From positions 1-29,824 of the IMG/VR virus record IMGVR_UViG_2609459820_000011: a DNA stretch of 29,824 nt; one strand, written 5' to 3'. The translations under genes and the position numbers were made by a program. Below, in pieces: positions 1-25,928 of the stretch (positions within the stretch are counted from its first letter, which is position 1; every line of letters starts with the position of its first letter). The notes under the pieces were generated by a model that saw only the letters and a program-made list of their open reading frames with translations, had not been told where the DNA came from and made no database searches. Source of the stretch: a virus. Its lineage: Duplodnaviria > Heunggongvirae > Uroviricota > Caudoviricetes.

Positions 1-1314
1 TTAACTTACTGATTTTAATAAGCCTCTGGTGTCACTTTGGTGACTATGGGGCATCATTGGGACATAATCTGTCAGCTTCTGATTCAGCATTGCGATCTGT
101 TCTGCATTGCTGTCAGTCATCCATGCTCCGTATACATTGAATACCATCTGGGCACTTGCATGGCCCATCTGGCTGGCAATGAAGCTTGGGTTTGCTCCGG
201 CAGATAATGACCAGCACGCATAAGTGTGTCGTGACTGGTATGCCTTTCGATGCCTGATCCCTGCACGCTTAATGGCTGTTTCCCATGAGTCACCTACAGA
301 ATCGACTTTGTAGACAAAACCTACCTGTTCGCTTTTTCTAACCACTTGAGGGTTAAACACGAAAGTACATTCATGGTTCACTGAACGTCCATATTCACGT
401 AGTTGCACCTTGATGTTGTACTGCTTACCCAGTCTTGTCATTTCAGCCTGATTTTTCAGGACACTGATAGCGGGCTGGATAAGGTGCACAACCCTGTTTG
501 TGCTTGCTTCAGTTTTCGGTAGAGTGAACTCACCAAGTTTCGTATAATTGCGCCTGATGGTAATTGTTCCTGCCTTCAGATCGATATCTTCCCAGGCCAG
601 GGAGACCAGTTCACCGTGACGCATTCCTGTGTACACAGCCAATGACCACAGGTTTTTCGTCTGCTGATGTCGGCAAGCATCTATCAGGCGAATAAATTCG
701 TCACGAGTTAGCGGATCTGGCTCTGCCCTGGCTCTTTTAAGAGGCTTAATTCCCTGGAAGGGATTTGCTTCTAAGTAACCGTGATCTGCAGCAAACTGAA
801 ACATTCCAGCGATTGTCGTCATGTAATAATTTACAGTAACGACGCTCCGTCCTTTTGCTGCTGCTTTGTTTTTCGTTGAATTCTGATACCCGGTAAGCAA
901 ATCTTTCCTGATATACAGCAATTCCTCTTTGGTTACCGATGACACCAGTCTACTGCCTCCAATTTTCGGAACCATCGTTCTTGCAACGGATTCATAGCGA
1001 TTGAATGCATTTGCAGAGATTTCCATTCGTTTCAGATCCAGCCACTTTTCTTCAAGTTCCTTCACCGTAATTTCTTTTTTACTTACCCCAAAAGCCTGAA
1101 GGTTGGGGGAGTCAGGGAACTGTGCAGCATAATCAAAGCTTCCTGTGCGGATGGCAAAACATACTGATGTCCGCAGTTCCCCGGCGATCTTCCTGTTCTT
1201 GGCAGTGTCAGGGACACCAAGATTTTCCCTGACACGTTTACCTTTAAAATTAAACCAGATGCGTAATGTGCCGCCGTGGTTTTCGACGCCTGTTGGATAT
1301 TTGACTTTATCCAT
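1..1314 (-). CDS. int: Phage integrase, tyrosine recombinase family; its 3' end lies at the window edge, so attL is probably just outside
   Basis: 437-aa ORF with GGAGG RBS 7 nt upstream of the ATG; C-terminal region shows tyrosine-recombinase-like motifs (TGMRHGEL, RHTYA, GH...VYGAW); sits at the prophage end next to a xis-like gene. Confidence 0.9.
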   Translation of the reverse strand: MDKVKYPTGVENHGGTLRIWFNFKGKRVRENLGVPDTAKNRKIAGELRTSVCFAIRTGSFDYAAQFPDSPNLQAFGVSKKEITVKELEEKWLDLKRMEISANAFNRYESVARTMVPKIGGSRLVSSVTKEELLYIRKDLLTGYQNSTKNKAAAKGRSVVTVNYYMTTIAGMFQFAADHGYLEANPFQGIKPLKRARAEPDPLTRDEFIRLIDACRHQQTKNLWSLAVYTGMRHGELVSLAWEDIDLKAGTITIRRNYTKLGEFTLPKTEASTNRVVHLIQPAISVLKNQAEMTRLGKQYNIKVQLREYGRSVNHECTFVFNPQVVRKSEQVGFVYKVDSVGDSWETAIKRAGIRHRKAYQSRHTYACWSLSAGANPSFIASQMGHASAQMVFNVYGAWMTDSNAEQIAMLNQKLTDYVPMMPHSHQSDTRGLLKSVS

Positions 1315-13951: not shown

Positions 13952-14779
13952 GTGACCGTGAGAGCACTGCTGACCCCTGAAATTGCCCCGCGTATGGGGA
14001 TCGTCTTGTTCAGACCCGGTTCAGAGCTGATGCCCCTGTTTATGCAGGGGCGTGTCCTGCTGGAGCCTGAGCCGGAACGTTATTCATCTTTTGCCAGTGG
14101 TGCCGTTCCGGCAGCATCACAACCGCTGGCGGATGATCCTGCCGTTCGGGCCGTGTTCCGCCATGAGGCGGTGATCCGTCGTGCTGGTGGCGTGGAATGC
14201 CTTGAGAGCTGGTTACTTCGTGAAAAAGGCTGCCAGTGGCCTCATTCCGGATGGCACAGCGAGAACATGACCACAATGCGACACGCGCCGGGCGCAATCC
14301 GTCTGTGCTGGCACTGCGATAACCTGCTTCGCGATCAGTTCACGGAACGTCTGGAATCAATGGCAACGGATAACTGTGCCCGCTGGGTGTTGTCCGTAGT
14401 CCGTCGTGATCTCGGTTTTGATGACAGCCACGTTGTGACAATGCCGGAACTGTGCTGGTGGCTGGTTCGTAATGACCTGGCGGATGCCTTACCGGAAAGT
14501 GCAGCCCGTAAGGCACTGAGATTACCGAAGCCTGTTGTGCCGTCTGTCACCCGGGAAAGTGACCTTGTGCCTTCGGTTCCTGCCACCAGCATCATCCGGG
14601 ATAAGGCGAAAAAGGTGCTGGCGCTGAAAGTGGATCCGGAGTCGCCGGAGTCTTTTATGTTACGCCCCAAACGTCGTCGCTGGGTTAATGAAAAGTACAC
14701 GCGCTGGGTTAAGACGCAGCCGTGTGCATGTTGTGGTAAGCCAGCCGACGATCCTCATCACCTGATTGGTCATGGTTAG
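13952..14779 (+). CDS. DUF968-like protein, N-terminal portion ending at an in-frame amber codon (TAG 14777-14779); the frame continues to 14946
   Basis: C-terminus CACCGKPADDPHHLIGHG then TAG then GGMGTKAHDLFVLPLCRKHHDGLHAD in the same frame; the DUF968 name is from memory. Confidence 0.6.
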   Translation: MTVRALLTPEIAPRMGIVLFRPGSELMPLFMQGRVLLEPEPERYSSFASGAVPAASQPLADDPAVRAVFRHEAVIRRAGGVECLESWLLREKGCQWPHSGWHSENMTTMRHAPGAIRLCWHCDNLLRDQFTERLESMATDNCARWVLSVVRRDLGFDDSHVVTMPELCWWLVRNDLADALPESAARKALRLPKPVVPSVTRESDLVPSVPATSIIRDKAKKVLALKVDPESPESFMLRPKRRRWVNEKYTRWVKTQPCACCGKPADDPHHLIGHG

Positions 14780-14964
14780 GGTGGAATGGGTACAAAAGCG
14801 CATGACCTTTTTGTGTTGCCTTTGTGCAGAAAACACCATGACGGACTGCATGCGGATACCGTGGCATTTGAAGAGAAGTATGGTTCCCAACTGGAGCTGA
14901 TATTTCGTTTTATCGATCGCGCGCTGGCGATTGGTGTGCTGTCCTGATTTTGTGGAGAAAGTTG

Positions 14965-15348
14965 ATGCGTGATATTCAGATGGTTCTCGAACGCTGGGGA
15001 GCATGGGCGGCAAATAATCATGAGGATGTGACCTGGTCGTCCATTGCTGCCGGTTTTAAGGGATTAATTCCTTCAAAAGTAAAATCTCGCCCGCAATGTT
15101 GTGACGATGACGCGATGATCATTTGCGGGTGCATGGCCCGTCTGAAAAAGAACAACAGCGATTTACACGATTTATTAGTAGATTATTATGTATGTGGTAT
15201 GACATTCATGTCACTGGCAAGTAAGCATTGCTGCTCGGATGGTTATATCGGGAAAAGGTTACAGAAGGCTGAGGGCATAATTGAAGGGATGTTAATGGCA
15301 TTAGATATCCGGTTAGATATGGATATCGTTGCTAATAATTCTAATTGA
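14965..15348 (+). CDS. quuD: Late antiterminator Q (QuuD-like)
   Basis: 127 aa from [22 protein letters not shown] with GGAGA RBS; recognised from memory as the DLP12-type Q. Confidence 0.8.
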
Positions 15349-15484
15349 TATGCAATTGTTTACTAAAAGTTATTAAAAATGGGGCGTGGAAACGCCCCCA
15401 AATAAAGGGTAATATATAACAGAAGGTTTATATAGTAAGAAGCAAGGTAGTGCTTCTAAAGGAAGTGGCTTGAGGGCTCCACTT

Positions 15485-15526
15485 ATATGTTGCGGAGGCA
15501 AAGCCTCCCGCAACATATCTTTTTCG
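15485..15526 (+). terminator. Strong hairpin plus T-run downstream of Q (tR'-like), also lying 10-18 nt beyond the nmpC stop
   Basis: ATATGTTGCGGAGG caaag CCTCCCGCAACATAT followed by CTTTTTCG. Confidence 0.5.
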
Positions 15527-15535
15527 TAAGTCAGA

Positions 15536-16618
15536 TTAGAACTGATAAACCAGACCTACAGCGACGATGTCGTCGGTATCAATACCAGCTGTTTTGGTAA
15601 ACTTACTATCGTCAATTAAGTTGATTTTGTAATCAACAAAAGTGGACATGTTTTTATTAAAGTAGTAAGTAGCACCGACATCGACATACTTGACTAAGTC
15701 TCGGTCACCATGAACACCAAGGTCTTTACCTTTTGACTGAAGGTAAGCAACAGATGGGCGCAGACCGAAGTCAAACTGATATTGTGCTACTGCTTCAAAG
15801 TTTTGTGCTTTGTTTGCAATATGGTTATTACCAAAAACGGTCATATTCTGAGTTTCAGAATATGTGGTAGCCAGATAGATATTGTTCGCATCATATTTCA
15901 GGCCTGCAGCCCATACTTCCGCATTTTTGCCGGAGGCATTGAATTTGCTCTTACCATAGGCGACCTGACCGTCAGTGCGATCTGATTTAGCATAGGTTGC
16001 ACCCACGCCGAATCCTTCATACTCATAAGTAGTGGAGAAACCGAAACCATCACCATTGGCTTCAGCTACGTCAGTGCGGTCATTTTTACCCTGATACTGA
16101 GCAGCAAAGTTCAGGCCATCGACCAGACCAAAGAAGTCGTTGTTACGATAAGTTGCAACACCAGTTGCACGTTGAGTCATGAACACGTCGGTTTGAGTCC
16201 AAGTGTCACCACCGAATTCTGGCAGGACGTCAGTCCACGCACCGATGTCGTATGCTACACCGAAGTTACGGCCGTAATCGATTGAGCCGTAATCACCAAA
16301 TTTCAGGCCTGCAAATGCAAGACGGGTTTTGTCTTTGGAAGAACCTTGAGATTCAGCACGGTTGCCTTTGAAGTCATATTCCCACTGACCGAACCCAGTC
16401 AGTTGATCGTTGATTTGGGTTTCACCTTTGAAGCCAAGACGGGCATAAGTAGTATCACCATCATCTGCATCATTAGAGGAGAAGTAGTGCTTGGCATTAA
16501 CTTTCCCGTATAGATCCAGCTTGTTACTGTCTTTATTATAAATTTCAGCTGCCTGAGCAGACATCGCCATCAGTACTGATGCAGCTACAGCAGAAATTGC
16601 CACTGTTAATTTTTTCAT
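15536..16618 (-). CDS. nmpC: Outer membrane porin, OmpC/OmpF family, NmpC/OmpD type (intact; 360-aa precursor)
   Basis: Signal peptide [23 protein letters not shown]; [16 protein letters not shown] porin N-terminus; C-terminal ...AVGLVYQF; AAGGG RBS; AT-rich upstream region. Confidence 0.9.
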
Positions 16619-17044
16619 TGTACGCCCTTTTTTTGAACTATTATAAAAAAATGATGTCACTGCGCGATAAATATTCATCTAATCAATGTGATTATTTCAA
16701 GATGTAAGTTTTAGTTTCTCATTTAATTTGTGAAGTAGATCTCTATTTTTATCTGAACCTTTTCTATCTAATCCTATTCATGGCTCTTGTTTGAACAAAA
16801 ATAAATCTATTAGCTAATTTATATTAATGGCACTTATTTATAAGTAGTCTATAATTCTTTAGCTTAATTTAAACAAACTAAAAATAACATCCGAAATTAT
16901 TTATTGGTTATTTGTTGAAGTTTTCTTATGTATTTGTGGTGGTGTTTTGAACACTCGGTGGCATTCTCACAAATATCATTTAGTAGTTTACGTACGTAAA
17001 AAATTGGTTATGCTGTTAAGAGTAGTTACTTCGTCACACAGCTT

Positions 17045-17070
17045 AAACCCGCCGATGAGCGGTTTTTTTT
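17045..17070 (+). terminator. Candidate intrinsic terminator (short GC stem plus T8)
   Basis: AAACCCGC cgatga GCGGTTTTTTTT. Confidence 0.35.
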
Positions 17071-17407
17071 GTGCCTGAACGTTAAATGCGCTGGTGGTTG
17101 TGAATGCCGACTGCGGCGGTATTTTGGCGTGACGGCGCAGGTGCCGTATACCGATGTCTGGACGCATAAACCGGTGCAGTTCTATCCCGGGAAACATCCG
17201 TGCGAAAAACCGGCAGAAATGCTGCAGCAGATAATCAGCGCTAGCAGTCGTCCGGGTGACCTGATTGCAGATTTTTTCATGGGGTCGGGTTCGACAGTGA
17301 AAGCGGCACTGGCGCTCGGGCGTCGTGCAATTGGCGTTGAGCTGGAGACTGAACGTTTTGAGCAGACGGTTCGGGAAGTACAGGATTTAGTCAGCCAGAA
17401 CGGATGA
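17069..17407 (+). pseudogene. C-terminal remnant of a beta-class N6-adenine/N4-cytosine DNA methyltransferase; no credible start and the N-terminal DPPY region is missing
   Basis: HPCEKPAEMLQQIISASSRPGDLIADFFMGSGSTVKAALALGRRAIGVE matches the C-terminal HP..KP and FxGSG(S/T)T motifs; ORF opens with TTG right after a T-run; first ATG leaves only 63 codons. Confidence 0.55.
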
Positions 17408-17447
17408 TATTGAAGAATTAATTACGCGTCGTTATTATGCGGCTCCC

Positions 17448-17523
17448 GGCCCTTTAGCTCAGTGGTGAGAGCGAGCGACTCATAATCGCCAGGTCGCTGG
17501 TTCAAATCCAGCAAGGGCCACCA
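17448..17523 (+). tRNA. ileZ: tRNA-Ile2 (anticodon CAU, ileX/ileZ-like) with encoded CCA
   Basis: Folded by hand: acceptor GGCCCTT/AAGGGCC, D-arm GCTC-AGTGGTGA-GAGC, anticodon loop CTCATAA, T-loop TTCAAAT, 3' CCA; very similar to E. coli ileX from memory. Confidence 0.85.
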
Positions 17524-17623
17524 TCACAAACCGCCATTAGCTTATCAGGAAGAGCAGACGACGCGATAACAGGGTTGTTGGTGCGGGGGCGGGTCCCCGA
17601 TGGCGGTCCATTATCGGTATTCA

Positions 17624-17697
17624 GCGTTGTTAGCTCAGCCGGACAGAGCAATTGCCTTCTAAGCAATCGGTCACTGGTTCGAATCCAGTACAGCGCG
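17624..17697 (+). tRNA. tRNA-Arg (anticodon UCU)
   Basis: Folded by hand: acceptor GCGTTGT/ACAGCGC (one G-U), anticodon stem ATTGC/GCAAT with loop CTTCTAA, T-arm ACTGG-TTCGAAT-CCAGT. Confidence 0.8.
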
Positions 17698-17837
17698 CTA
17701 TATTCATTCTTCCAGATTCCTTCCGGCAGAGCCTTATACTGAAATATACCTGGCTCAGGATATTGTTGAAAATATTATATGTTTGTCAAAAATAAAAGTT
17801 CTGTTAAGTATTGATTGAGTGTTTGTTATACGGTCTA

Positions 17838-18164
17838 ATGGTTTTTTCAGCATTAAATATTTATCATTCATATGGTGTGGGTAGAGTGAATATTGATGAG
17901 GCGTCGGGGTGTTTCATCCTTAGGCAGCGTATTGATATAGTCAATGCAGCACGAGCAAAGGCCTTCAGCCGTTTGACAGTTTTGTTCTGTACTCCTGATC
18001 GTCTTTCGGGAAGAGACGTTATTATTCTGAATAGTGATGCTATTCAGAGGGTTTGCGATGAGTTCATGGTTGCTAATTCAGAATTATTTGCTCTTGTTCA
18101 GGAGTACAACAGAATAGCCAGGACCTGTGGTATGGATGAACTTCGGATTACTCATCTGGGGTAG
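17838..18164 (+). CDS. Hypothetical protein (108 aa from the first ATG; ORF opens at 17811 with TTG); poor translation signals
   Basis: ORF track; sits at the stx-equivalent position downstream of the tRNAs; no RBS seen. Confidence 0.3.
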   Translation: MVFSALNIYHSYGVGRVNIDEASGCFILRQRIDIVNAARAKAFSRLTVLFCTPDRLSGRDVIILNSDAIQRVCDEFMVANSELFALVQEYNRIARTCGMDELRITHLG

Positions 18165-18556
18165 ATACATATCTGGATTATCACTTGTTACGGTAAAAAG
18201 TGATTGCTTACTGTTTTTGTGAGTGGCATTGCAGCAGCCGGATAATGTCAGTGCTGGCTGACGGTGTGCTGGTGGCGGGTGTGGTGGTTGTTGCTTTCCC
18301 GTTGCTGAAAAAGAAAACGCCAGACTGTTAGCCGGGTATCAGTTAGCGGGAGAAATTTTTAAATACTTCACAATTCAGGCGGTTGACTGTTGTCTGGTTT
18401 GCGGGGAGTTTGTTAAAAGAAACTGGCATGGTGAATCCCCCTGTGCGGAGGGGCAATCAGCGAGTAGGTATATGGGATAATCGCGGATTCAGGTGCTGGT
18501 ACTGAATTCACCGGGAGGCACCCGGCACCATGCAATGGCACATAGCGCCACTCTCC

Positions 18557-18590
18557 AGCCCCTCTCCGGAGGGGCTGTTTATATTGATTT
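18557..18590 (+). terminator. Intrinsic terminator
   Basis: AGCCCCTC tccg GAGGGGCT followed by GTTTATATTGATTTT. Confidence 0.55.
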
Positions 18591-18611
18591 TGTCAGATGT
18601 GAGTAAACTCC

Positions 18612-18947
18612 TTATGGACTTTGTTGTTTTAGTCCATAAGGACATATTTGCAGAGTGCAACGGTTATTAAAGCATTCATTCAATACGTTATCTGTATTTG
18701 TAGGACATTCCTGGCTGTTTTTGATTAAATTCCAGAATGTTTTATTGAATGGTGCTACGTTGTAAATGGTTACAGGTAGCACTTTGTTATTGAGCATGAT
18801 ACCTGTGTGAGTCAGTGTAAATATACTTTCAGGAGGTAAGAAAGCATCCGATTGATACCAGATTATTAATTTTATTTTACTCCATATGACTGAAAAAGAT
18901 ATTCCGCATGATGGCTGGATAACTGTATCAATCACAATCCACTTCAT
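18612..18947 (-). CDS. Hypothetical Cys-containing protein (111 aa) in an AT-rich cargo segment, opposite to late transcription
   Basis: AAGGAAA RBS 5 nt upstream of the ATG; AT-rich upstream region 18950-19190. Confidence 0.5.
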
Positions 18948-19207
18948 TTAGTTTCCTTGTTTATGTCTTGCTGGTGATGTTCTGAAAAGTATAAATGATA
19001 TTTTTGAATGTAAACCATAGAGCAGAATTATTTTTCTGATGTTGTTTATTGTTTATTTAAATGCAGGGTGGTTTATATCTCGTCTTGTAGTTTATCCATG
19101 CATATCTGCTTGATGATGAGGTTTTTATTTAAGGTATGGTTTTGTGTTTTTTCTGTATTACATGTCAGGTATTTTAAAGAATTATTTTTCAGATGGTGGA
19201 AAGAACC

Positions 19208-21169
19208 ATGGCATTTAAACACTATGATGTTGTCAGGGCGGCATCGCCGTCAGACCTTGCGAAACGACTGACACAAAAACTGAAGGAGGGGTGGCAGCCA
19301 TTTGGCAGTCCGGTGGCCATCACGCCTTATACCCTGATGCAGGCCATTGCGGCGGAAGGTGATGTCACCACACCTGTGGTGGTGAAGCCGTCGGATGGAG
19401 AAGGCGCAGTTATCAGCACCACCAGCAACCCGGAGTATTACTTTGTTGTTGCCCTGGCCGGGCAGTCAAACGGTATGGCGTATGGTGAAGGGCTTCCGCT
19501 GCCGGAGACATATGACCGTCCGGACCCGCGTATTAAACAGCTGGCGCGTCGCAGCACTGTCACGCCGGGTGGTGCGTCCTGTAACTACAATGACATTATT
19601 CCTGCGGACCACTGCCTGCATGATGTTCAGGATTTGAGTAAGTTTTCACACCCGAAAGCCAGCGCAGCTCAGTATGGATGCGTGGGGCAGGGATTACATA
19701 TCGCGAAGAAATTGTTGCCGTTTATTCCGGCGAATGCCGGTATTCTTCTGGTTCCGTGCTGCCGTGGTGGTTCTGCATTTTTGGCGGGCGATGAAGGTAC
19801 CTTCAGCGAATCCACCGGCGCAAGCGAGACCTCGGCACGCTGGGGTGTTGATAAGCCACTGTACAAGGACCTGCTTACCCGTACTCAGGCCGCACTGAAG
19901 GCCAACCCTAAAAATATTCTGCTTGCAGTGGTCTGGATGCAGGGCGAGTTTGATTTGAAACAGGGTGCATACGCCACTCAGCCGGGGCTGTTTGATTCCA
20001 TGGTGGAAAAATATCGTTCTGACCTGTCGGAATTCGGAGGTCAGTGTCTCGGGGGCTCTCCGTCATCGGTTCCCTGGATTTGTGGCGACACGACCTACTA
20101 CTGGAAGCAGACTTATTCTTCGCAATACGATGCGGTGTATGGTGCATACAAGACGAAATCCGCAAAAAAAATCTTCTTTGTGCCGTTTATGACGGATGAA
20201 AACGGGCGAAATGTGGGTACCAACGAGCCGTCAGAAGATCCGGATGTTGCGGATATTGGGTATTACGGAGCCGGTGGTCGAACGGACGCCAAAACCTGGA
20301 CGACGGCCGACCGTAAAACGCATTTTGGATCATGGGCACGTCGTGGGATTATTTCCGACCGTCTGGCAACGGCGATTCTTGTGCATGCCGGGAGAAACGC
20401 TGAATTCATTACCGGAAAACAGCCTGATACGGTGAAGCCCACCGGACCTTCCGGTGAAGGTACGGAGAGAGAGCCGGAAGCCCCGGTCAGTAACCGAACC
20501 CTGATGAGTCTGCTGGCGTCCGGCGAAGACCTGGCATCACAGGGCTGGCGCTATTATCACAAACCGGCGAGCGGAGACAATGTTAACAAAAACATTGCTG
20601 AAGCGGTGGTCAGTGATGCGGGGGCTACGGGAGGTAAGGCCCTGCAACTGAATAAACCGGAAAACCACATCTGGTTTCTGGAGCATGATGCAGCCGGACA
20701 GGGAGTGGAGTTACTGAAGAAGGGGGGACGTGTGAGCGTACGGTTTAAGTTGCCGGGTTCACTGGTGCCGAATCAGTTTGCCCTGGGCATTTACTGGCAG
20801 TTGTCGTCCCTGCCGGAGGGAGTGACGCTGGCAGAGGAAGGCAACGACATGCTGATGTCCTTCTTTCTGCAGACGGATGCGACGAACCTGAACGCGATGC
20901 ACCACAAGAAGCCGAATGCGAAGCTGGAAACGTTCGGGGTCTTTGATAACGGATGGCACACACTGGCTTTTGAGTTTGCCGGAAACAACAGCATTCAGGT
21001 GACGCCGGTACTGGATGAGAAACGGGGGACGCCGTTCACACTGGTGAAATCTCCGGCATCAGGGGCGGCGGACAAACTGCAACTGACAGGCATATCAAAG
21101 GCGGCGACATATACGCTGCTGATTGACAGTGTGAAGGTGGAAGTGAACAACGCGGACATCGCGGCATGA
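19208..21169 (+). CDS. nanS-p: Prophage NanS-p-type sialate O-acetylesterase (DUF1737 N-terminal domain plus SGNH/SASA esterase domain plus C-terminal domain)
   Basis: N-terminus MAFKHYDVVRAASPSDLAKRLTQKLKEGWQPFG; GQSN esterase motif (VALAGQSNGMAYGE); position upstream of the holin, as in Stx-type phages. Confidence 0.8.
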   Translation: MAFKHYDVVRAASPSDLAKRLTQKLKEGWQPFGSPVAITPYTLMQAIAAEGDVTTPVVVKPSDGEGAVISTTSNPEYYFVVALAGQSNGMAYGEGLPLPETYDRPDPRIKQLARRSTVTPGGASCNYNDIIPADHCLHDVQDLSKFSHPKASAAQYGCVGQGLHIAKKLLPFIPANAGILLVPCCRGGSAFLAGDEGTFSESTGASETSARWGVDKPLYKDLLTRTQAALKANPKNILLAVVWMQGEFDLKQGAYATQPGLFDSMVEKYRSDLSEFGGQCLGGSPSSVPWICGDTTYYWKQTYSSQYDAVYGAYKTKSAKKIFFVPFMTDENGRNVGTNEPSEDPDVADIGYYGAGGRTDAKTWTTADRKTHFGSWARRGIISDRLATAILVHAGRNAEFITGKQPDTVKPTGPSGEGTEREPEAPVSNRTLMSLLASGEDLASQGWRYYHKPASGDNVNKNIAEAVVSDAGATGGKALQLNKPENHIWFLEHDAAGQGVELLKKGGRVSVRFKLPGSLVPNQFALGIYWQLSSLPEGVTLAEEGNDMLMSFFLQTDATNLNAMHHKKPNAKLETFGVFDNGWHTLAFEFAGNNSIQVTPVLDEKRGTPFTLVKSPASGAADKLQLTGISKAATYTLLIDSVKVEVNNADIAA

Positions 21170-21525
21170 TAAAAAAAGCCGCCAGCGGCAGGAATGGAAG
21201 CTGGCGGAGGTAATCCCAATGGAGAATGTAAAGAAAAGATGCTTTCGACATCAATCATTTCTAAATGAAAACAGTTCTCATTGTCAACCATAACGGTAAG
21301 AAATTATGACATTTATTCATCAGGTAATGCTGTACTTCTGTATGGCAGTCTGTGTTATGTATCTTCTTTCGGGTGGGTACAGGGCAGTGCGCGATTTCTG
21401 GCGCAGGCAGATTGATAAAAGGGCCGCTGAGAGAATCAGCGCCAGTCAGTCAGCCGGAAGCAAACCCGAAGATCCGCTCATTCCGTAGTCACTTTCTTGA
21501 CAACACCTTTCAACGAGAAAATCCC

Positions 21526-21771
21526 ATGTCAGAAATCACATCCCTGGTCACTGCTGAGGCAGTGAAGGAAGTCCTGCGCTCTGAAGAAGTCCTGAGCGCA
21601 CTGAAACAGAAACTCCGCCAGAACCTTGAGTCGCGTCTTGATGCAGAAGTGGATGCCATTCTGGATGAGCTGCTGGGCGTACCAGCGGTTCCGGAGCCGG
21701 AAGGTATCGCGGGTGACGGGAGTGCTTCAGATGGCGGTGAACCCACACCTGACAGCGACATGATGATGTAA
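21526..21771 (+). CDS. Hypothetical acidic protein (81 aa)
   Basis: ORF between nanS-p and the holin; weak RBS. Confidence 0.4.
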
Positions 21772-21847
21772 GCCTGCGCAAGGGACCATCGGTGTGTGCC
21801 GGTGGTCTTTATATTGTTGTGAGCTTCCGGATAACGGGAGACGGGGT

Positions 21848-22063
21848 ATGTACCAGATGGAAAAAATCACAACAGGTGTGTCATACACCACGTCAGCGGT
21901 GGGAACGGGCTACTGGTTCCTGCAGTTGCTGGACAGGGTTTCCCCGTCTCAGTGGGCGGCAATAGGCGTGCTGGGGAGTCTGCTGTTTGGGCTGCTGACG
22001 TACCTGACTAACCTGTATTTCAAAATCAAAGAGGACCGGCGTAAGGCGGCGCGGGGAGAGTAA
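21848..22063 (+). CDS. Class II holin, phage 21 S-like (pinholin type) with dual start motif (Met1/Met4)
   Basis: 71 aa [10 protein letters not shown]...[50 protein letters not shown]; two TM segments; GGAGACGGGG RBS; resembles S21 from memory. Confidence 0.85.
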
Positions 22064-22067
22064 AGTG

Positions 22068-22874
22068 ATGAATAAAAAATATGAACTGGTTGTTAAGGGG
22101 ATAAATAATTACGGGGATAAGGTTACTGTTACTGTGAAGCCGGAAGGTGACGGGCAAGCGTCGCTGTTGTTGCCAGATGTGGCGATTAGTCTTGACCGTA
22201 CTGAAGGTGCCACGCTGGAGTTTTACGAAGCTGAGGCGAAAAAGCAGGCGAAGCAGTTTTTCATGGATGTTGCTGCCGGGTTATGTGAATGGAACGAACC
22301 GTTGCCGGAAAAGCGCCCCGTAATTTTAGAGGCGCAGGATGTGTTGATAACCTACAAAGGAAAGCTACCGGGAAGAATTACTTGTTCTCTGAAGATGCCG
22401 CCGTCAACACTGCGGTCAGAAAAAGAGGCGTCTTGTCTGCAGTCTGAGTACTCCATTACGGTTAAAAGTGCCGGAGAGGAAGGAAATAAACGTTATTTTA
22501 TTGCGTCTGCACCTGATAAAGATCAGGAATGGGAGTGTAACCGGCCATCCTTTGTTGTATACGGAGATGGCGGGAAAATAACCATCTCAGAAAATGGGAA
22601 ATTAACACCGCCATCGCACCAGCATAGTGAGGCGCTCATTGAATTTGCCATTGATTACCTGAAGAACAATAAAAAGCAGGGGCTGATGAAGCGCATTGGT
22701 CGTTGCATGGGATATCTGCAGGTAGCAGCTGAGATTGAAATGATGGCCAGTGGTGCTGACAATGATGCAGTTGTGCTGGAGGCTCTTCTGCGTGATTTTG
22801 ATAATACGCCCTTTAAGAAAGCACCTGTTGACTGGATGCAGCCGGGGATGACTTATCTGAAAGGGCGTATATAA
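22068..22874 (+). CDS. Hypothetical soluble protein (268 aa) inserted between holin and endolysin
   Basis: ATG 5 nt after the holin stop with GGAGAG RBS; no TM segment; no recognisable motif. Confidence 0.6.
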   Translation: MNKKYELVVKGINNYGDKVTVTVKPEGDGQASLLLPDVAISLDRTEGATLEFYEAEAKKQAKQFFMDVAAGLCEWNEPLPEKRPVILEAQDVLITYKGKLPGRITCSLKMPPSTLRSEKEASCLQSEYSITVKSAGEEGNKRYFIASAPDKDQEWECNRPSFVVYGDGGKITISENGKLTPPSHQHSEALIEFAIDYLKNNKKQGLMKRIGRCMGYLQVAAEIEMMASGADNDAVVLEALLRDFDNTPFKKAPVDWMQPGMTYLKGRI

Positions 22875-22883
22875 GGTGGCTCG

Positions 22884-23198
22884 TTATCTGTTGCTGGATA
22901 ATCGACTGAAGATGCGTTCTTTTTGTGTTTTTGCGTAATGATTGTCCCACTCACAATCAAGGTAGCTTAATTCTTCATTCAACCAGTTATTTATATTGGT
23001 CTTAATACGCATAAGCATGGGCTGTGTTAATGCTCTGGCGATAATGCCGAGAGTCACAGGTGTGAGATGTCCATACGGCTCAGCCTGAATGGATTTTACT
23101 GCATCGTGTTCTTGTGGGAGGAGTAAGAGGCACTCTGATTTTACCCGCTCATTTATGGCTTGCAGGCATAAATCATAATTATGTTGATCGTTATGCAT
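22884..23198 (-). CDS. Hypothetical protein (104 aa), convergent with the preceding gene and antisense to late transcription
   Basis: AGAGGA RBS 7 nt upstream of the ATG; stop is 9 nt from the stop of the 268-aa gene. Confidence 0.5.
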   Translation of the reverse strand: MHNDQHNYDLCLQAINERVKSECLLLLPQEHDAVKSIQAEPYGHLTPVTLGIIARALTQPMLMRIKTNINNWLNEELSYLDCEWDNHYAKTQKERIFSRLSSNR

Positions 23199-23326
23199 GG
23201 TTAATCCTCTACTGAAATTGTCAGATATATTTCAGCCATCAGGAAAAACGCCAGTGTCCTACCGCTGGCGGGCTGAAGATTTAACATATCCAGGGATTCG
23301 GAACCGATAAATCCTGATAAATATCC

Positions 23327-23860
23327 ATGAACACCAAAATCAAATATGGCCTGTCGGCTGCCGTTCTGGCGTTGATTGCCATCGGTGCGCCTGCGCCTGA
23401 TATTCTCGACCAGTTTCTGGATGAAAAAGAAGGTAACCACACAACGGCATACCGTGATGGTGCGGGTATCTGGACCATCTGCCGCGGTGCCACAATGGTG
23501 GATGGTAAACCTGTTATTCCGGGCATGAAACTGTCGAAGGAAAAATGCGACCAGGTTAATGCCATTGAACGGGATAAGGCGCTGGCATGGGTGGAGCGCA
23601 ATATTAAAGTTCCACTGACCGAACCACAGAAAGCGGGTATAGCGTCATTCTGTCCCTATAACATTGGCCCCGGTAAGTGTTTCCCGTCGACGTTTTATAA
23701 GCGGCTGAATGCTGGTGACCGCAGGGGAGCGTGTGAGGCGATTCGCTGGTGGATTAAGGACGGTGGCAGGGACTGCCGTATTCGCTCAAATAACTGTTAC
23801 GGTCAGGTATCCCGTCGTGACCAGGAGAGCGCGCTGGCGTGCTGGGGAATCGACAGATAA
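23327..23860 (+). CDS. R: SAR endolysin (GH24 lysozyme with N-terminal signal-anchor-release domain)
   Basis: N-terminal hydrophobic YGLSAAVLALIAIGAPA; catalytic-region motif EGNHTTAYRDGAGIWTICRG. Confidence 0.85.
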   Translation: MNTKIKYGLSAAVLALIAIGAPAPDILDQFLDEKEGNHTTAYRDGAGIWTICRGATMVDGKPVIPGMKLSKEKCDQVNAIERDKALAWVERNIKVPLTEPQKAGIASFCPYNIGPGKCFPSTFYKRLNAGDRRGACEAIRWWIKDGGRDCRIRSNNCYGQVSRRDQESALACWGIDR

Positions 23861-23952
23861 GCAGAATATTTTGCTAATAAATGACGTTGGCCAAGGCGGA
23901 CGGATAACACGAAATCCTGCGAACTGGCAAAATGTAAGTGAATAAAAGTAAA

Positions 23953-23990
23953 AACCCCGTTTGTTGGCAGCAAGCGGGGTTTTGTTTTTA
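23953..23990 (+). terminator. Strong intrinsic terminator downstream of the endolysin
   Basis: AACCCCGTTTG ttggcag CAAGCGGGGTT followed by TTGTTTTTA. Confidence 0.6.
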
Positions 23991-24054
23991 TGGCAGTAAG
24001 CTATGGGAGGCTGCCTTGATTGATTTTAGCAAACTGATTAGGGAGTTGCGACTC

Positions 24055-24150
24055 ATGATTAGTCAATTACCAAACTGGAAATTTTTGCTGGTCTGGAGCA
24101 TCCCTTTTTTATGGGTAGTATCCCAGTTAATTGTGGCAATTAAGGGGTAG
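24055..24150 (+). CDS. Small hydrophobic peptide A (31 aa)
   Basis: MISQLPNWKFLLVWSIPFLWVVSQLIVAIKG; AGGGAG 10 nt upstream. Confidence 0.3.
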   Translation: MISQLPNWKFLLVWSIPFLWVVSQLIVAIKG

Positions 24151-24152
24151 CT

Positions 24153-24284
24153 ATGTCAGACAAACTCATAACGCCGGCAAAGGTCCTGTGTGTGATTGTC
24201 GGTATTTCATTTTCACTAATGCTGGTTGCTCTTTTTCTGTCCCTCGCCTGGGTGATGTTGTCTTCGTCGGGGCTGCTGGGGTGA
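24153..24284 (+). CDS. Small membrane peptide B (43 aa)
   Basis: MSDKLITPAKVLCVIVGISFSLMLVALFLSLAWVMLSSSGLLG; AAGGGG RBS 5-6 nt upstream. Confidence 0.35.
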   Translation: MSDKLITPAKVLCVIVGISFSLMLVALFLSLAWVMLSSSGLLG

Positions 24285-24403
24285 CAGTGACTGATGACAT
24301 CAGCAGAGCGCTGGCTTTTGCTATTAAGTGGGTGGCTGTTGGTATTGCTGTGTCTCCGATGCTGTATGGGCTGGCAAAACTGGTCATTGCGCTGAAATCG
24401 TGA
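24281..24403 (+). CDS. Small membrane peptide C (~40 aa, GTG start), paralog of peptide D
   Basis: VTVTDDISRALAFAIKWVAVGIAVSPMLYGLAKLVIALKS; shares the RA(L/M)AFAI(K/R)xVA motif with peptide D. Confidence 0.3.
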   Translation: MTVTDDISRALAFAIKWVAVGIAVSPMLYGLAKLVIALKS

Positions 24404-24414
24404 ACTTTAAAAAG

Positions 24415-24501
24415 ATGAGTGCTGAACTTATTCGGGCAATGGCATTTGCCATTCGTATTGTGGCCATTGCTGTTCTGGTCTGGGCAATCCGTTGGTGGTG
24501 A
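24415..24501 (+). CDS. Small membrane peptide D (28 aa), paralog of peptide C; stop is 1 nt before the Rz start
   Basis: [28 protein letters not shown]. Confidence 0.3.
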
Positions 24502-24502
24502 T

Positions 24503-24970
24503 ATGAACCGTGTTCTGTGTGTGGTGATTATTGTCCTGCTGGTAGCCTGTGGTGTGCTTAGTCTGGGGCTGAATCATTACCGCGATAACGCCATCACCTA
24601 CAAAGCGCAGCGCGATAAAAAAGTCAGTGAGCTGAAACTGGCGAACGCGACAATTACTGATATGCAGATACGCCAGCGTGATGTCGCTGAACTTGATGCC
24701 AGATACTCGAGGGAATTAGCCGATGCGAGAGCTGAAAATGAAACTCTGCGTGCTGATGTTGCCGCTGGTCGTAAGCGCCTGCGGATCAACGCCACCTGCT
24801 CCGGTACCGTGCGTGAAGCCACCGGCACCTCCGGCGTGGATAATGCAACCGGCCCCCGACTGGCAGACACCGCTGAACGGGATTATTTCATCCTCAGAGA
24901 ACGGTTGATGACAATGCAGAAGCAGCTGGAAGGGGCACAGGACTATATCCGCACTCAGTGCCTGAACTAA
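24503..24970 (+). CDS. rz: Rz i-spanin
   Basis: N-terminal TM anchor [23 protein letters not shown] then coiled-coil region; Rz1 embedded in the +1 frame. Confidence 0.8.
24738..24908 (+). CDS. rz1: Rz1 o-spanin (proline-rich lipoprotein embedded within Rz)
   Basis: [15 protein letters not shown] lipobox then proline-rich [16 protein letters not shown]. Confidence 0.7.
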
Positions 24971-25179
24971 GTTTTGCTGATGCACCGTATCGTCGCTGTA
25001 TTCCCTCATTAACAGAGACCGCAGCCCGACAGGGAGACTCCTCTGCGCGAGTGTGCGGGGATAATCAAAAACGATACACACCGGGGTTTACCGCGTTAAC
25101 GGAGCGCGGCGTTGTCCCCTCATAGTCGCCAGTCCGGTGCGATGGTGGAAGAAACCGGACTACATTGAAAATGATAACC

Positions 25180-25400
25180 ATTATCATTTTTGCGGGTCCT
25201 TTCCGGCGATCCGGGCCGTTACGGGGCGGCGACCTCGCGGGTTTTCGCTATTTATGAAAATTTTCCGGGAACCATGTCCGGTTTCTCTTCAAGTTAACTA
25301 TATGAAAAATAAAAAAAGAGGTCTTCTGTGAACCGGACATGCACAAAAAATAGACATGTAAGCCGGACATGACCGGTTTTGTTGTGATTGTGAAGTGAGA
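25180..25400. other. cos site (cosN with flanking cosB-like repeats)
   Basis: ACGGGGCGGCGACCTCGCGGGTTTTCGCTATTTATGAAAATTTTCCGG matches the lambda cohesive-end region from memory (cosN GGGCGGCGACCT at 25224-25235); three CCGGACATG-type repeats between cosN and the Nu1 start. Confidence 0.7.
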
Positions 25401-25418
25401 GTTTTTGCGAGGTGAGGA

Positions 25419-25928
25419 GTGGCTACGCAGACTGAAGTTGCCAGGCATTTAAGTCTGACCGATCGCCAGCTTCGCAGATTGCAGAAATTGCCGGGTGCCC
25501 CGATATCGAATAAGCGAGGGCAACTGGATCTGGATGCCTGGCGCGATTTTTACATATCGTATCTGAGAAGAAGTAAAAACGATGTGCCTGATGGCGATAG
25601 CGAAGACGACTATGAGGAGAAATTGCTTATTGCCAGATGGGAACTGACAGCAGAACAGGCTGTTACACAGCAGTTAAAAAATGAGGTGTCAAAAGGAAAA
25701 CTTATTGATACCGGGTTCTGTATTTTTGCCCTCAGCAAGCTGGCAATGGCGTTATCCAGTACGCTTGATTCCATCCCTTTATCCATGCAGCGACAGTTTC
25801 CTGATTTAACACCGCGCCATCTTGACCATCTGAAAACCCTTATTGCGAAGGGGGCAAATCAGTGTGCGCGGGCGGGGGATAAATTACCGGATTTACTCGA
25901 TGAATATATCAGAGCAACAACTGAATAA
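25419..25928 (+). CDS. nu1: Terminase small subunit, lambda Nu1-like
   Basis: GTG start; C-terminal region GFCIFALSKLAMALSSTLDSIPLSMQRQFPDLTPRHLDHLK...LLDEYI parallels lambda Nu1. Confidence 0.85.
   Translation: MATQTEVARHLSLTDRQLRRLQKLPGAPISNKRGQLDLDAWRDFYISYLRRSKNDVPDGDSEDDYEEKLLIARWELTAEQAVTQQLKNEVSKGKLIDTGFCIFALSKLAMALSSTLDSIPLSMQRQFPDLTPRHLDHLKTLIAKGANQCARAGDKLPDLLDEYIRATTE

Follow-up and report, generated by a model that had tools for sequence, protein, structure and literature searches.

The 29,824-nucleotide stretch of viral DNA that was analyzed (referred to below as the window) carries at positions 14965-15348, on the plus strand, a gene for a Q antiterminator of the QuuD / phage 82 / 933W family (127 amino acids; PF06530, E = 6.7e-54). 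An identical gene is named quuD in RefSeq. Over 120 residues the product exhibits 81% amino acid identity to the Q protein of Sakai Sp5, but the similarity breaks off at the sequence ...RL(D/E)MD, seven codons short of the stop codon of the window gene. Beyond this point the Sp5 gene runs on into its own late promoter, PR', whereas the window gene stops after seven unrelated codons, its C-terminal tail being both different from and shorter than that of Sp5 Q.

Located 187 bases past Q, and on the minus strand, is a porin gene (15536-16618) that encodes a protein of 360 amino acids. The minus-strand open reading frame extends from 15536 to 16678, and the ATG at 16618 is its biologically sensible start. 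Translation from this codon yields a signal peptide of 23 residues (encoded at 16550-16618, with cleavage between AQA and AEIYNKD) that is identical to the signal peptide annotated for Lc, the porin of phage PA-2, in J02580. The Pfam family Porin_1 (PF00267) covers the protein end to end, residues 29-360 matching positions 1-337 of the 337-position profile (E = 6.7e-151; 502.9 bits against a curated cut-off of 23.7), and the match to the NCBIfam OmpC subfamily NF007841 scored 522.4 bits (cut-off 484). Residues 24-360 can be aligned to the complete mature chains of the solved OmpC, OmpF, and PhoE structures, and both the PEFGG motif of loop 3 and a C-terminal YQF are present. From the signal peptide, the full Porin_1 match, the structure alignment, and the two motifs, we conclude that the porin gene is intact. 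A prior, sequence-only reading of this DNA had called an intact, signal peptide-bearing porin gene on the minus strand directly after Q, and the Pfam, structural, and motif evidence upholds that call. The range given in that reading, 15349-16700, takes in the 3' spacer and a portion of the 5' leader along with the gene.

The protein shares 98% identity with its counterpart in phage 4A7 and 91% with both the porin of mEp332 and Lc. Its differences from Lc, which has 365 residues as compared to 360 for the window protein, are concentrated in a few short substituted blocks (alignment columns about 149-154, 182-199, 220-232, 268-271, and 340-351) and two short indels. Judged by these comparisons, the window gene is an intact allele of the NmpC/Lc porin of lambdoid prophages, belonging to the 4A7/Perceval allele group. 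The gene lies between Q and the lysis genes and on the strand opposite to both, an order that is also found in DLP12, 4A7, mEp332, and PA-2.

Features flanking the porin gene

The spacer between Q and the porin gene (15349-15535) holds two main hairpins rather than a single terminator. The one closer to Q, at 15372-15398, was recognized by a terminator scan as an intrinsic terminator on the minus strand. Its stem (15381-15398) consists of seven base pairs, six of which are G-C, with a folding energy of -13.8 kcal/mol, and the T-run AUUUUUAAUA comes next on the minus strand. On the plus strand the stem is followed instead by CAAAUAAA, and hence the hairpin is not a plus-strand terminator. The minus-strand terminator would serve the porin gene and the RNA that corresponds to ipeX (see below).

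The second hairpin (15485-15518) is the stronger of the two (-21.9 kcal/mol, z = -4.6, on the plus strand; -22.5 kcal/mol on the minus strand) and has the opposite polarity. Its T-run is found on the plus strand only, extending the element to 15524. Read in the other direction, the hairpin forms a stem-loop 17 nt past the porin stop codon and has no U-run. The hairpin is kept in DLP12, PA-2, 4A7, and 434B. It is a candidate terminator of rightward transcripts leaving Q, and as such it could stop them before they enter the porin gene.

Between the porin stop codon and the end of the minus-strand U-run there are about 164 nt (15372-15535), which would constitute the 3' UTR of the porin mRNA. This region is about 93% identical to the corresponding spacers of K-12 DLP12 and PA-2. 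In DLP12 the RNA ipeX has the corresponding position. Castillo-Keller and colleagues are said to have reported in 2006 that ipeX is located between the nmpC stop codon and the nmpC terminator, and the same sequence reportedly follows lc in PA-2. According to a review, ipeX of DLP12 is 167 nt long and is processed out of the porin mRNA, whose synthesis starts at the phage porin promoter, and according to published papers IpeX lowers OmpC and OmpF. No Rfam family matched in the Q-porin spacer, and we have therefore assigned the 3' UTR of the window porin as the likely counterpart of ipeX by position and homology. The hairpins after Q, in short, would seem to belong to the porin gene and its control elements.

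On its other side the porin gene is preceded by a region of 368 bases (16619-16986) with a GC fraction of 0.266, as compared to 0.487 for the whole window, in agreement with the long AT-rich stretch that had been noted upstream of the porin from the sequence alone. Within it is a CRP-type site (16726-16746) that faces the porin gene and is identical at 21 of 21 positions to the site at 1363-1383 of the PA-2 sequence J02580. Two CRP sites are annotated at lc in J02580, and the distal one coincides with 17021-17041 of the window, that is, with the first 21 bases of the putative late transcript considered below. A scan of the minus strand for a match to the σ70 consensus that could represent the porin's own promoter found none.

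The AT-rich region also contains a σE-type promoter sequence, conserved in K-12, that is directed away from the porin gene (GAACT at 16636-16640, a spacer of 16 nt, GTCAC at 16657-16661, and a start at about 16667). The activity of this promoter is known from the literature, and its position in the window comes from primer mapping. The end of the primer Pdlp12Fw corresponds to position -121 of the RpoE-regulated lysis-cassette region of DLP12 (PMC7918800). The primer maps to 16546-16565 of the window, which puts the RpoE start at 16667, a value derived from the forward primer only, as the reverse primer of that study was not found in K-12. With a start at this position, the DNA past the porin coding sequence would hold one or more rightward promoters in addition to the late promoter.

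Placement of the late promoter

A single segment of the window, 16983-17075, is homologous to a mapped late promoter, and it lies on the far side of the porin gene from Q. Its homolog is the segment that directly follows Q in the Shiga-toxin phages H-19B and Sakai Sp5. Aligned to the unit of Sp5 that comprises PR' and the first terminator, 16983-17075 gave a local score of 82, as compared to 15.4 ± 2.4 for shuffled sequences, and none of 300 shuffles reached the observed score. The homology takes in the -35 sequence, the spacer, the -10 sequence, the initial transcribed region, and the first hairpin. By homology, and by conversion of the coordinates given in PMC7547250, we place PR' at 16987-17021 on the plus strand, with TTTACG (16987-16992) as the -35 sequence, a 16-nt spacer, TATGCT (17009-17014) as the -10 sequence, and a probable start at about 17021. 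In Sp5 the equivalent elements are TTTACG, 16 nt, and TATCAT. The predicted start is 7 nt past this -10 sequence, and from there it is 258 nt to the T-run that belongs to the second terminator, in agreement with the 258 nt that Sy et al. (2020) found between PR' and the mapped 3' end of tR' (PMC7547250). The initial transcribed region of the window unit and its first terminator-like hairpin occupy 17022-17069, the hairpin with its run of eight T residues being at 17046-17069. The 17022-17069 segment is common to the Stx phages and PhiR49_2 and is a mosaic joint to the Stx-phage-like late region downstream.

The same unit is present in exact form in K-12 DLP12, 4A7, PA-2, 434B, and mEp332, where it lies about 170 nt before the holin genes. 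It is invariant across these elements, and the AT-rich DNA that flanks it is variable. Two features distinguish the window from Sp5 and H-19B. In those phages the unit and the 3' end of Q share sequence, whereas in the window 1.65 kb, taken up by the porin gene and its flanks, separate the two, and the second terminator, which ends StxS in Sp5, is absent from the window. The hairpin that follows PR' is weaker in the window (GCGG) than in DLP12 or Sp5 (GCGGG), and the next strong plus-strand terminator beyond it is at 18556-18577.

Not every detail fits this placement. The first hairpin of Sp5 lies at +24 to +50 and the mapped 3' end at +258, a mismatch that counts against the putative unit. 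The hairpin after Q in Sp5 and H-19B was considered as the tR' that ends a 74-nt StxS. This assignment is ruled out by PMC7547250, according to which the 74-nt RNA arises by processing, as a 3' fragment, and tR' is 258 nt from PR'. Finally, the pause element of phage 82, as published, has a -10-like sequence at +9 to +14, GCC at +15 to +17, and AT-rich DNA up to +25, and it matches the 16987-17021 unit only approximately.

A comparison with PhiR49_2 bears on how the arrangement in the window arose. To the left, PhiR49_2 has the same genes as the window (a helicase gene, a DUF968 gene, and a gene of the Q family) but no porin gene. Instead, a promoter region comes within 40-50 bases of Q and is followed by a transcribed segment like that of the window, a hairpin, a methylase remnant, and tRNAs; the two are 98.2% identical over window positions 17014-17450. 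The Q allele of PhiR49_2 and the DNA of the spacer between its -35 and -10 sequences differ from those of the window, whereas the transcribed part is shared. A spacer that changes along with the Q allele is how a late promoter specific for its own Q would be expected to behave. On the basis of the PR' homology beyond the porin gene and of the porin-less arrangement in PhiR49_2, the porin gene and its flanks look like a cassette that was inserted between Q and PR'. We consider it likely that a cassette extending from 15349 to about 16986 was acquired in this way, that it is divergent from the late operon, and that Q-modified RNA polymerase need not cross it.

The sequence-only reading had placed a tR'-like terminator right after Q, so that Q-antiterminated late transcription would have to run antisense through the porin gene on its way to the lysis genes. 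On the present map, PR' would then lie directly after Q, the hairpin and T-run at 15485-15524 would be tR', and the transcript would cross the AT-rich region as well. This arrangement has precedents. Lambda, 21, Sp5, and PhiR49_2 all have their late promoter immediately next to Q, and a good plus-strand terminator does lie 137 nt past the Q stop codon of the window. In phage 2E9 a related Q gene is followed by an apparent promoter and terminator and then by a minus-strand lipocalin gene, which suggests that antisense morons inside late operons exist. Moreover, in DLP12 and PA-2 the Q stop codon lies within a motif composed of TAATATGCC and AATTGTTT, which is similar to the phage 82 pause element as published. 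In the window, however, the motif reads TGATATG-CA, with a substitution at position two of the -10-like hexamer and the loss of one base, and 19 phage records carry that variant. A search for a PR' beside Q according to the phage 82 pause description returned partial fits (TAATATGCC in DLP12, TGCTAATAAT, and TAATAT at 15410), and this line was dropped because no fit was consistent across the two natural variants. Nor was an acceptable σ70 promoter found in the Q-porin spacer.

The Q-proximal spacer scored 18-19 against the PR'-tR' region of Sp5 and against the region after Q in 2E9, values that are at the level of chance (shuffle means of 17-18); we have accordingly rejected the post-Q region of 2E9 as a relative of this spacer. 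The tR'-like terminator that had been read after Q thus gives way to the 3' UTR of the porin on the minus strand, whose likeness to PR' units is at chance level, and the conserved unit that is homologous to a mapped PR' sits elsewhere in the same module. The comparative evidence, then, has late transcription starting downstream of nmpC, and we regard a PR' adjacent to Q in the window as quite unlikely. The antisense conflict that had been proposed probably stems from PR' having been read in the wrong place.

A second alternative accepts PR' at 16987-17021 but supposes that, in lytic growth, the antiterminated early transcripts from which Q is expressed pass the hairpin at 15485-15524 and cross ipeX and the porin gene in the antisense direction, so that any antisense interference would come from the early operon and not from Q. 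Q is the last plus-strand gene ahead of the cassette, and one hairpin and T-run alone separates it from the 3' end of the porin gene. The early rightward transcript of lambda-type phages is, furthermore, made resistant to termination (N-type antitermination; PMC7547250). Against this, the terminator at 15485-15524 is strong, and we judge read-through of this kind to be improbable, somewhat more so than a late promoter beside Q.

An elaboration of this alternative may be put forward as a conjecture, although we think it unlikely to be correct. Termination-resistant early transcripts of Q might cross ipeX and the porin gene during lytic growth, switching off conversion and relieving the repression of OmpC and OmpF at the moment of phage exit from the cell, and the AT-rich DNA might act as a 400-bp hub at which inputs from CRP, σE, and Q converge.

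Finally, the porin gene might be a silent remnant, intact but unexpressed like the quiescent nmpC of some laboratory strains, given that its AT-rich upstream DNA is of the kind that is usually silenced by H-NS. nmpC is indeed called quiescent in E. coli B and K-12 in the titles of references on the subject, but conservation extends over the open reading frame with its signal peptide, the ribosome-binding region, the CRP site, and the 3' UTR, and near-identical or related copies are expressed in strains LF82 and CFT073, all of which makes a silent remnant highly improbable.

The porin cassette and its relatives

The preferred reading, in which the cassette was inserted between Q and PR', can be set out as follows. 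On the minus strand the cassette would consist of the AT-rich region with its CRP-type site, the coding sequence (16618-15536), a 3' UTR of roughly 165 nt, and the terminator (15398-15372). In a lysogen, host RNA polymerase would transcribe it independently of the lytic program of the phage, and the porin would be exported and then inserted in the outer membrane. The 3' UTR would meanwhile lower host OmpC and OmpF, as is known from published work on DLP12 and PA-2. Ordinary transcripts leaving Q would be stopped by the plus-strand hairpin and T-run at 15485-15524. PR', at 16987-17021, would point away from the porin gene and make the porin gene and the late operon divergent neighbors.

The cassette has its own minus-strand terminator (15372-15398), its AT-rich upstream region holds a CRP-type site, and related flanks occur without it in PhiR49_2. 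These are features of a lysogenic-conversion gene (a "moron") with control elements of its own, and the porin gene would appear to be one, the regulatory activity of these elements being predicted.

Work on other strains indicates that genes of this kind are expressed in lysogens. In the lysogen LF82, grown overnight in LB, NmpC of the prophage Perceval, whose module is 98% identical to that of the window, exceeded the local background 10-fold. For two nmpC genes of CFT073, RNA and protein levels are both higher at 37 °C than at 23 °C, and the CFT073 paper cites a contribution of NmpC to heat resistance in strain AW1.7. In line with reports on other strains, the intact allele of the window may affect the permeability, phage sensitivity, and heat tolerance of its host.

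The module is common. With a coverage of at least 80%, the block that comprises Q, the spacer, the porin gene, and the upstream region (14950-17068) was found in at least 36 phage records, 34 of which are 95-99% identical to the window, and it is 98% identical to that of infectious lambdoid phages such as 4A7, ev017, Perceval, and the PhiR series. At the same coverage, 2406 of the 5426 complete E. coli genomes contain the block. With the module in nearly half of these genomes, its presence in the window carries little weight as a discovery. The porin gene, its place in the prophage, the IS5-disrupted copy of K-12, the regulator in the 3' UTR, and expression in lysogens are all in the literature already. 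What changes is the map: with the porin cassette lying between Q and the late promoter, late transcription would probably not oppose the porin gene, which would be insulated from it.

Downstream of PR' the window departs from these relatives. Homology to modules of the DLP12/4A7 type stops at about 17068 and is followed by a methylase gene that lacks its N-terminus (17069-17407), two tRNA genes, a match to the Rfam family STnc100, and an IraM-like gene on the minus strand. A sialate-esterase-like gene occupies 19193-21169, and the holin, endolysin, and spanin open reading frames are found on the plus strand at about 21794-24970. The prophage, as these comparisons indicate, is a mosaic, and the whole of 15300-25500 was found in one piece in no genome of the collection searched. 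The PR' unit of 4A7, ev017, Perceval, and the PhiR series has the genes for holin, endolysin, and spanin after it within about 170 nt, whereas in the window about 4.8 kb of other late-region DNA separates the unit from the lysis genes.

The NmpC/Lc porin has been studied since at least 1985, as the publications of Highton et al. (1985) and Prilipov et al. (1998) attest, and one classical copy is that of the cryptic K-12 prophage DLP12 (qsr'). DLP12 has the same module as the window: quuD, the ipeX spacer, nmpC on the minus strand, an AT-rich region with the RpoE-type promoter, and the PR' unit. The gene order there is quuD, nmpC, and then essD, rrrD, and rzpD. The disruption of K-12 nmpC by an insertion sequence, which the sequence-only reading had mentioned, is borne out: the gene is a pseudogene split near its 3' end by IS5B, whereas the copy in the window is intact. 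Phage 434B has a region of the same DLP12 type, and its annotation puts the IS5 insertion after codon 346.

The lc gene of PA-2 (J02580) has the same place and orientation as the window gene, antiparallel to the lysis genes, with a Q-porin spacer that is 93% identical, an identical proximal CRP site, and the PR' unit before the lysis genes. The two diverge beyond that unit, where PA-2 has a holin gene and the window has the methylase remnant, the tRNAs, and the Stx-phage-like late region.

Other phages carry different cargo in the slot after Q, ahead of the lysis genes. Genes for outer-membrane or envelope proteins are found there on the minus strand in 2E9, which encodes the lipocalin Blc, and in 434B, which encodes LpxR, both being proteins that are unrelated to the window porin. 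In 2E9 a putative promoter and terminator precede the cargo gene, which would probably place it inside the late transcript.

Minus-strand genes and a small RNA match in the late region

The sequence-only reading held that Q-antiterminated late transcription crosses the porin gene antisense. Antisense late transcription through cargo probably applies not to the porin but to two other genes, both of which lie on the minus strand within the inferred late operon. One (18612-18947) encodes an IraM-like anti-adapter (NF007393, 162 bits), and the other is an open reading frame of 104 amino acids (22884-23198) located between the holin and endolysin genes. Between the IraM-like gene on one side and tRNA genes on the other, we found a strong plus-strand match (18397-18586) to the STnc100 small RNA family (132 bits against an Rfam gathering score of 47). 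It ends in a terminator (18556-18577) that is stronger than any other on the plus strand of this region.

The PR' hairpin, the methylase joint and the porin upstream region

Directly downstream of the hairpin that follows the inferred late promoter PR' is a plus-strand DNA methylase gene (17069-17407) that lacks its N-terminus, matching only positions 135-220 of the Pfam N6_N4_Mtase profile. The phage PhiR49_2, which carries the same DNA downstream of Q without the porin, has the same remnant, and the remnant that follows tR' in the Shiga-toxin phage Sakai Sp5 is shorter still. Given the remnants in the window, Sp5 and PhiR49_2, we conclude that recombination at the joint between hairpin and methylase has been repeated. 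The hairpin in the window (17046-17069, plus strand) folds weakly and has lost one G from its stem as compared to Sp5 (GCGG rather than GCGGG). The first hairpin of Sp5 (1069-1095 of its locus, L010), with its run of seven T residues, spans +24 to +50 in the transcript from PR'; it does not terminate transcription, and the 3' end published for Sp5 is at +258.

On the other side of PR', and directed away from the porin, is a plus-strand σE-like promoter (16636-16667, GAACT-N16-GTCAC, with a start at about 16667), 49 nt upstream of the porin's start codon. This start corresponds to the RpoE-regulated start of the lysis cassette of DLP12, a cryptic prophage of K-12. The promoter would overlap the porin 5' leader on the opposite strand. 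Meanwhile, the distal "CRP site" of the 1986 record for the porin-carrying phage PA-2 coincides with the initial 21 bases transcribed from the inferred PR' (17021-17041). This segment is also retained in Shiga-toxin phages that have no porin, and it may have nothing to do with control of the porin.

Flanking genes and likenesses to other phages

The first gene of the window encodes a tyrosine integrase (1-1314, minus strand). In the genome with the identical Q-porin block, the neighbour of the integrase is a DUF72 gene, probably a sign of where the prophage is integrated. Upstream of Q, an in-frame stop near 14780 divides a plus-strand DUF968 (YdfU-type) gene (13952-14947) into open reading frames of 275 and 53 amino acids; the identical gene of strain NMBU_W05E18, whose genome is nearest to the window over the left module, has an internal stop in RefSeq and is classed there as a pseudogene.

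Like that of Shiga-toxin phages, the late region has ileZ-like and argO-like tRNA genes (17448-17698; two by ARAGORN and Rfam, as against three in NMBU_W05E18) and a sialate O-acetylesterase-like gene (19193-21169), but no stx was seen among the annotations of the matching genome records. Finally, the slot after Q holds a minus-strand gene for the lipocalin Blc in phage 2E9 (L008, 3035-3559) and one for the lipid A deacylase LpxR in phage 434B (L005, 2643-3602). The presence of these different minus-strand envelope genes suggests that cargo in reverse orientation has landed repeatedly in the interval between Q and the lysis genes.
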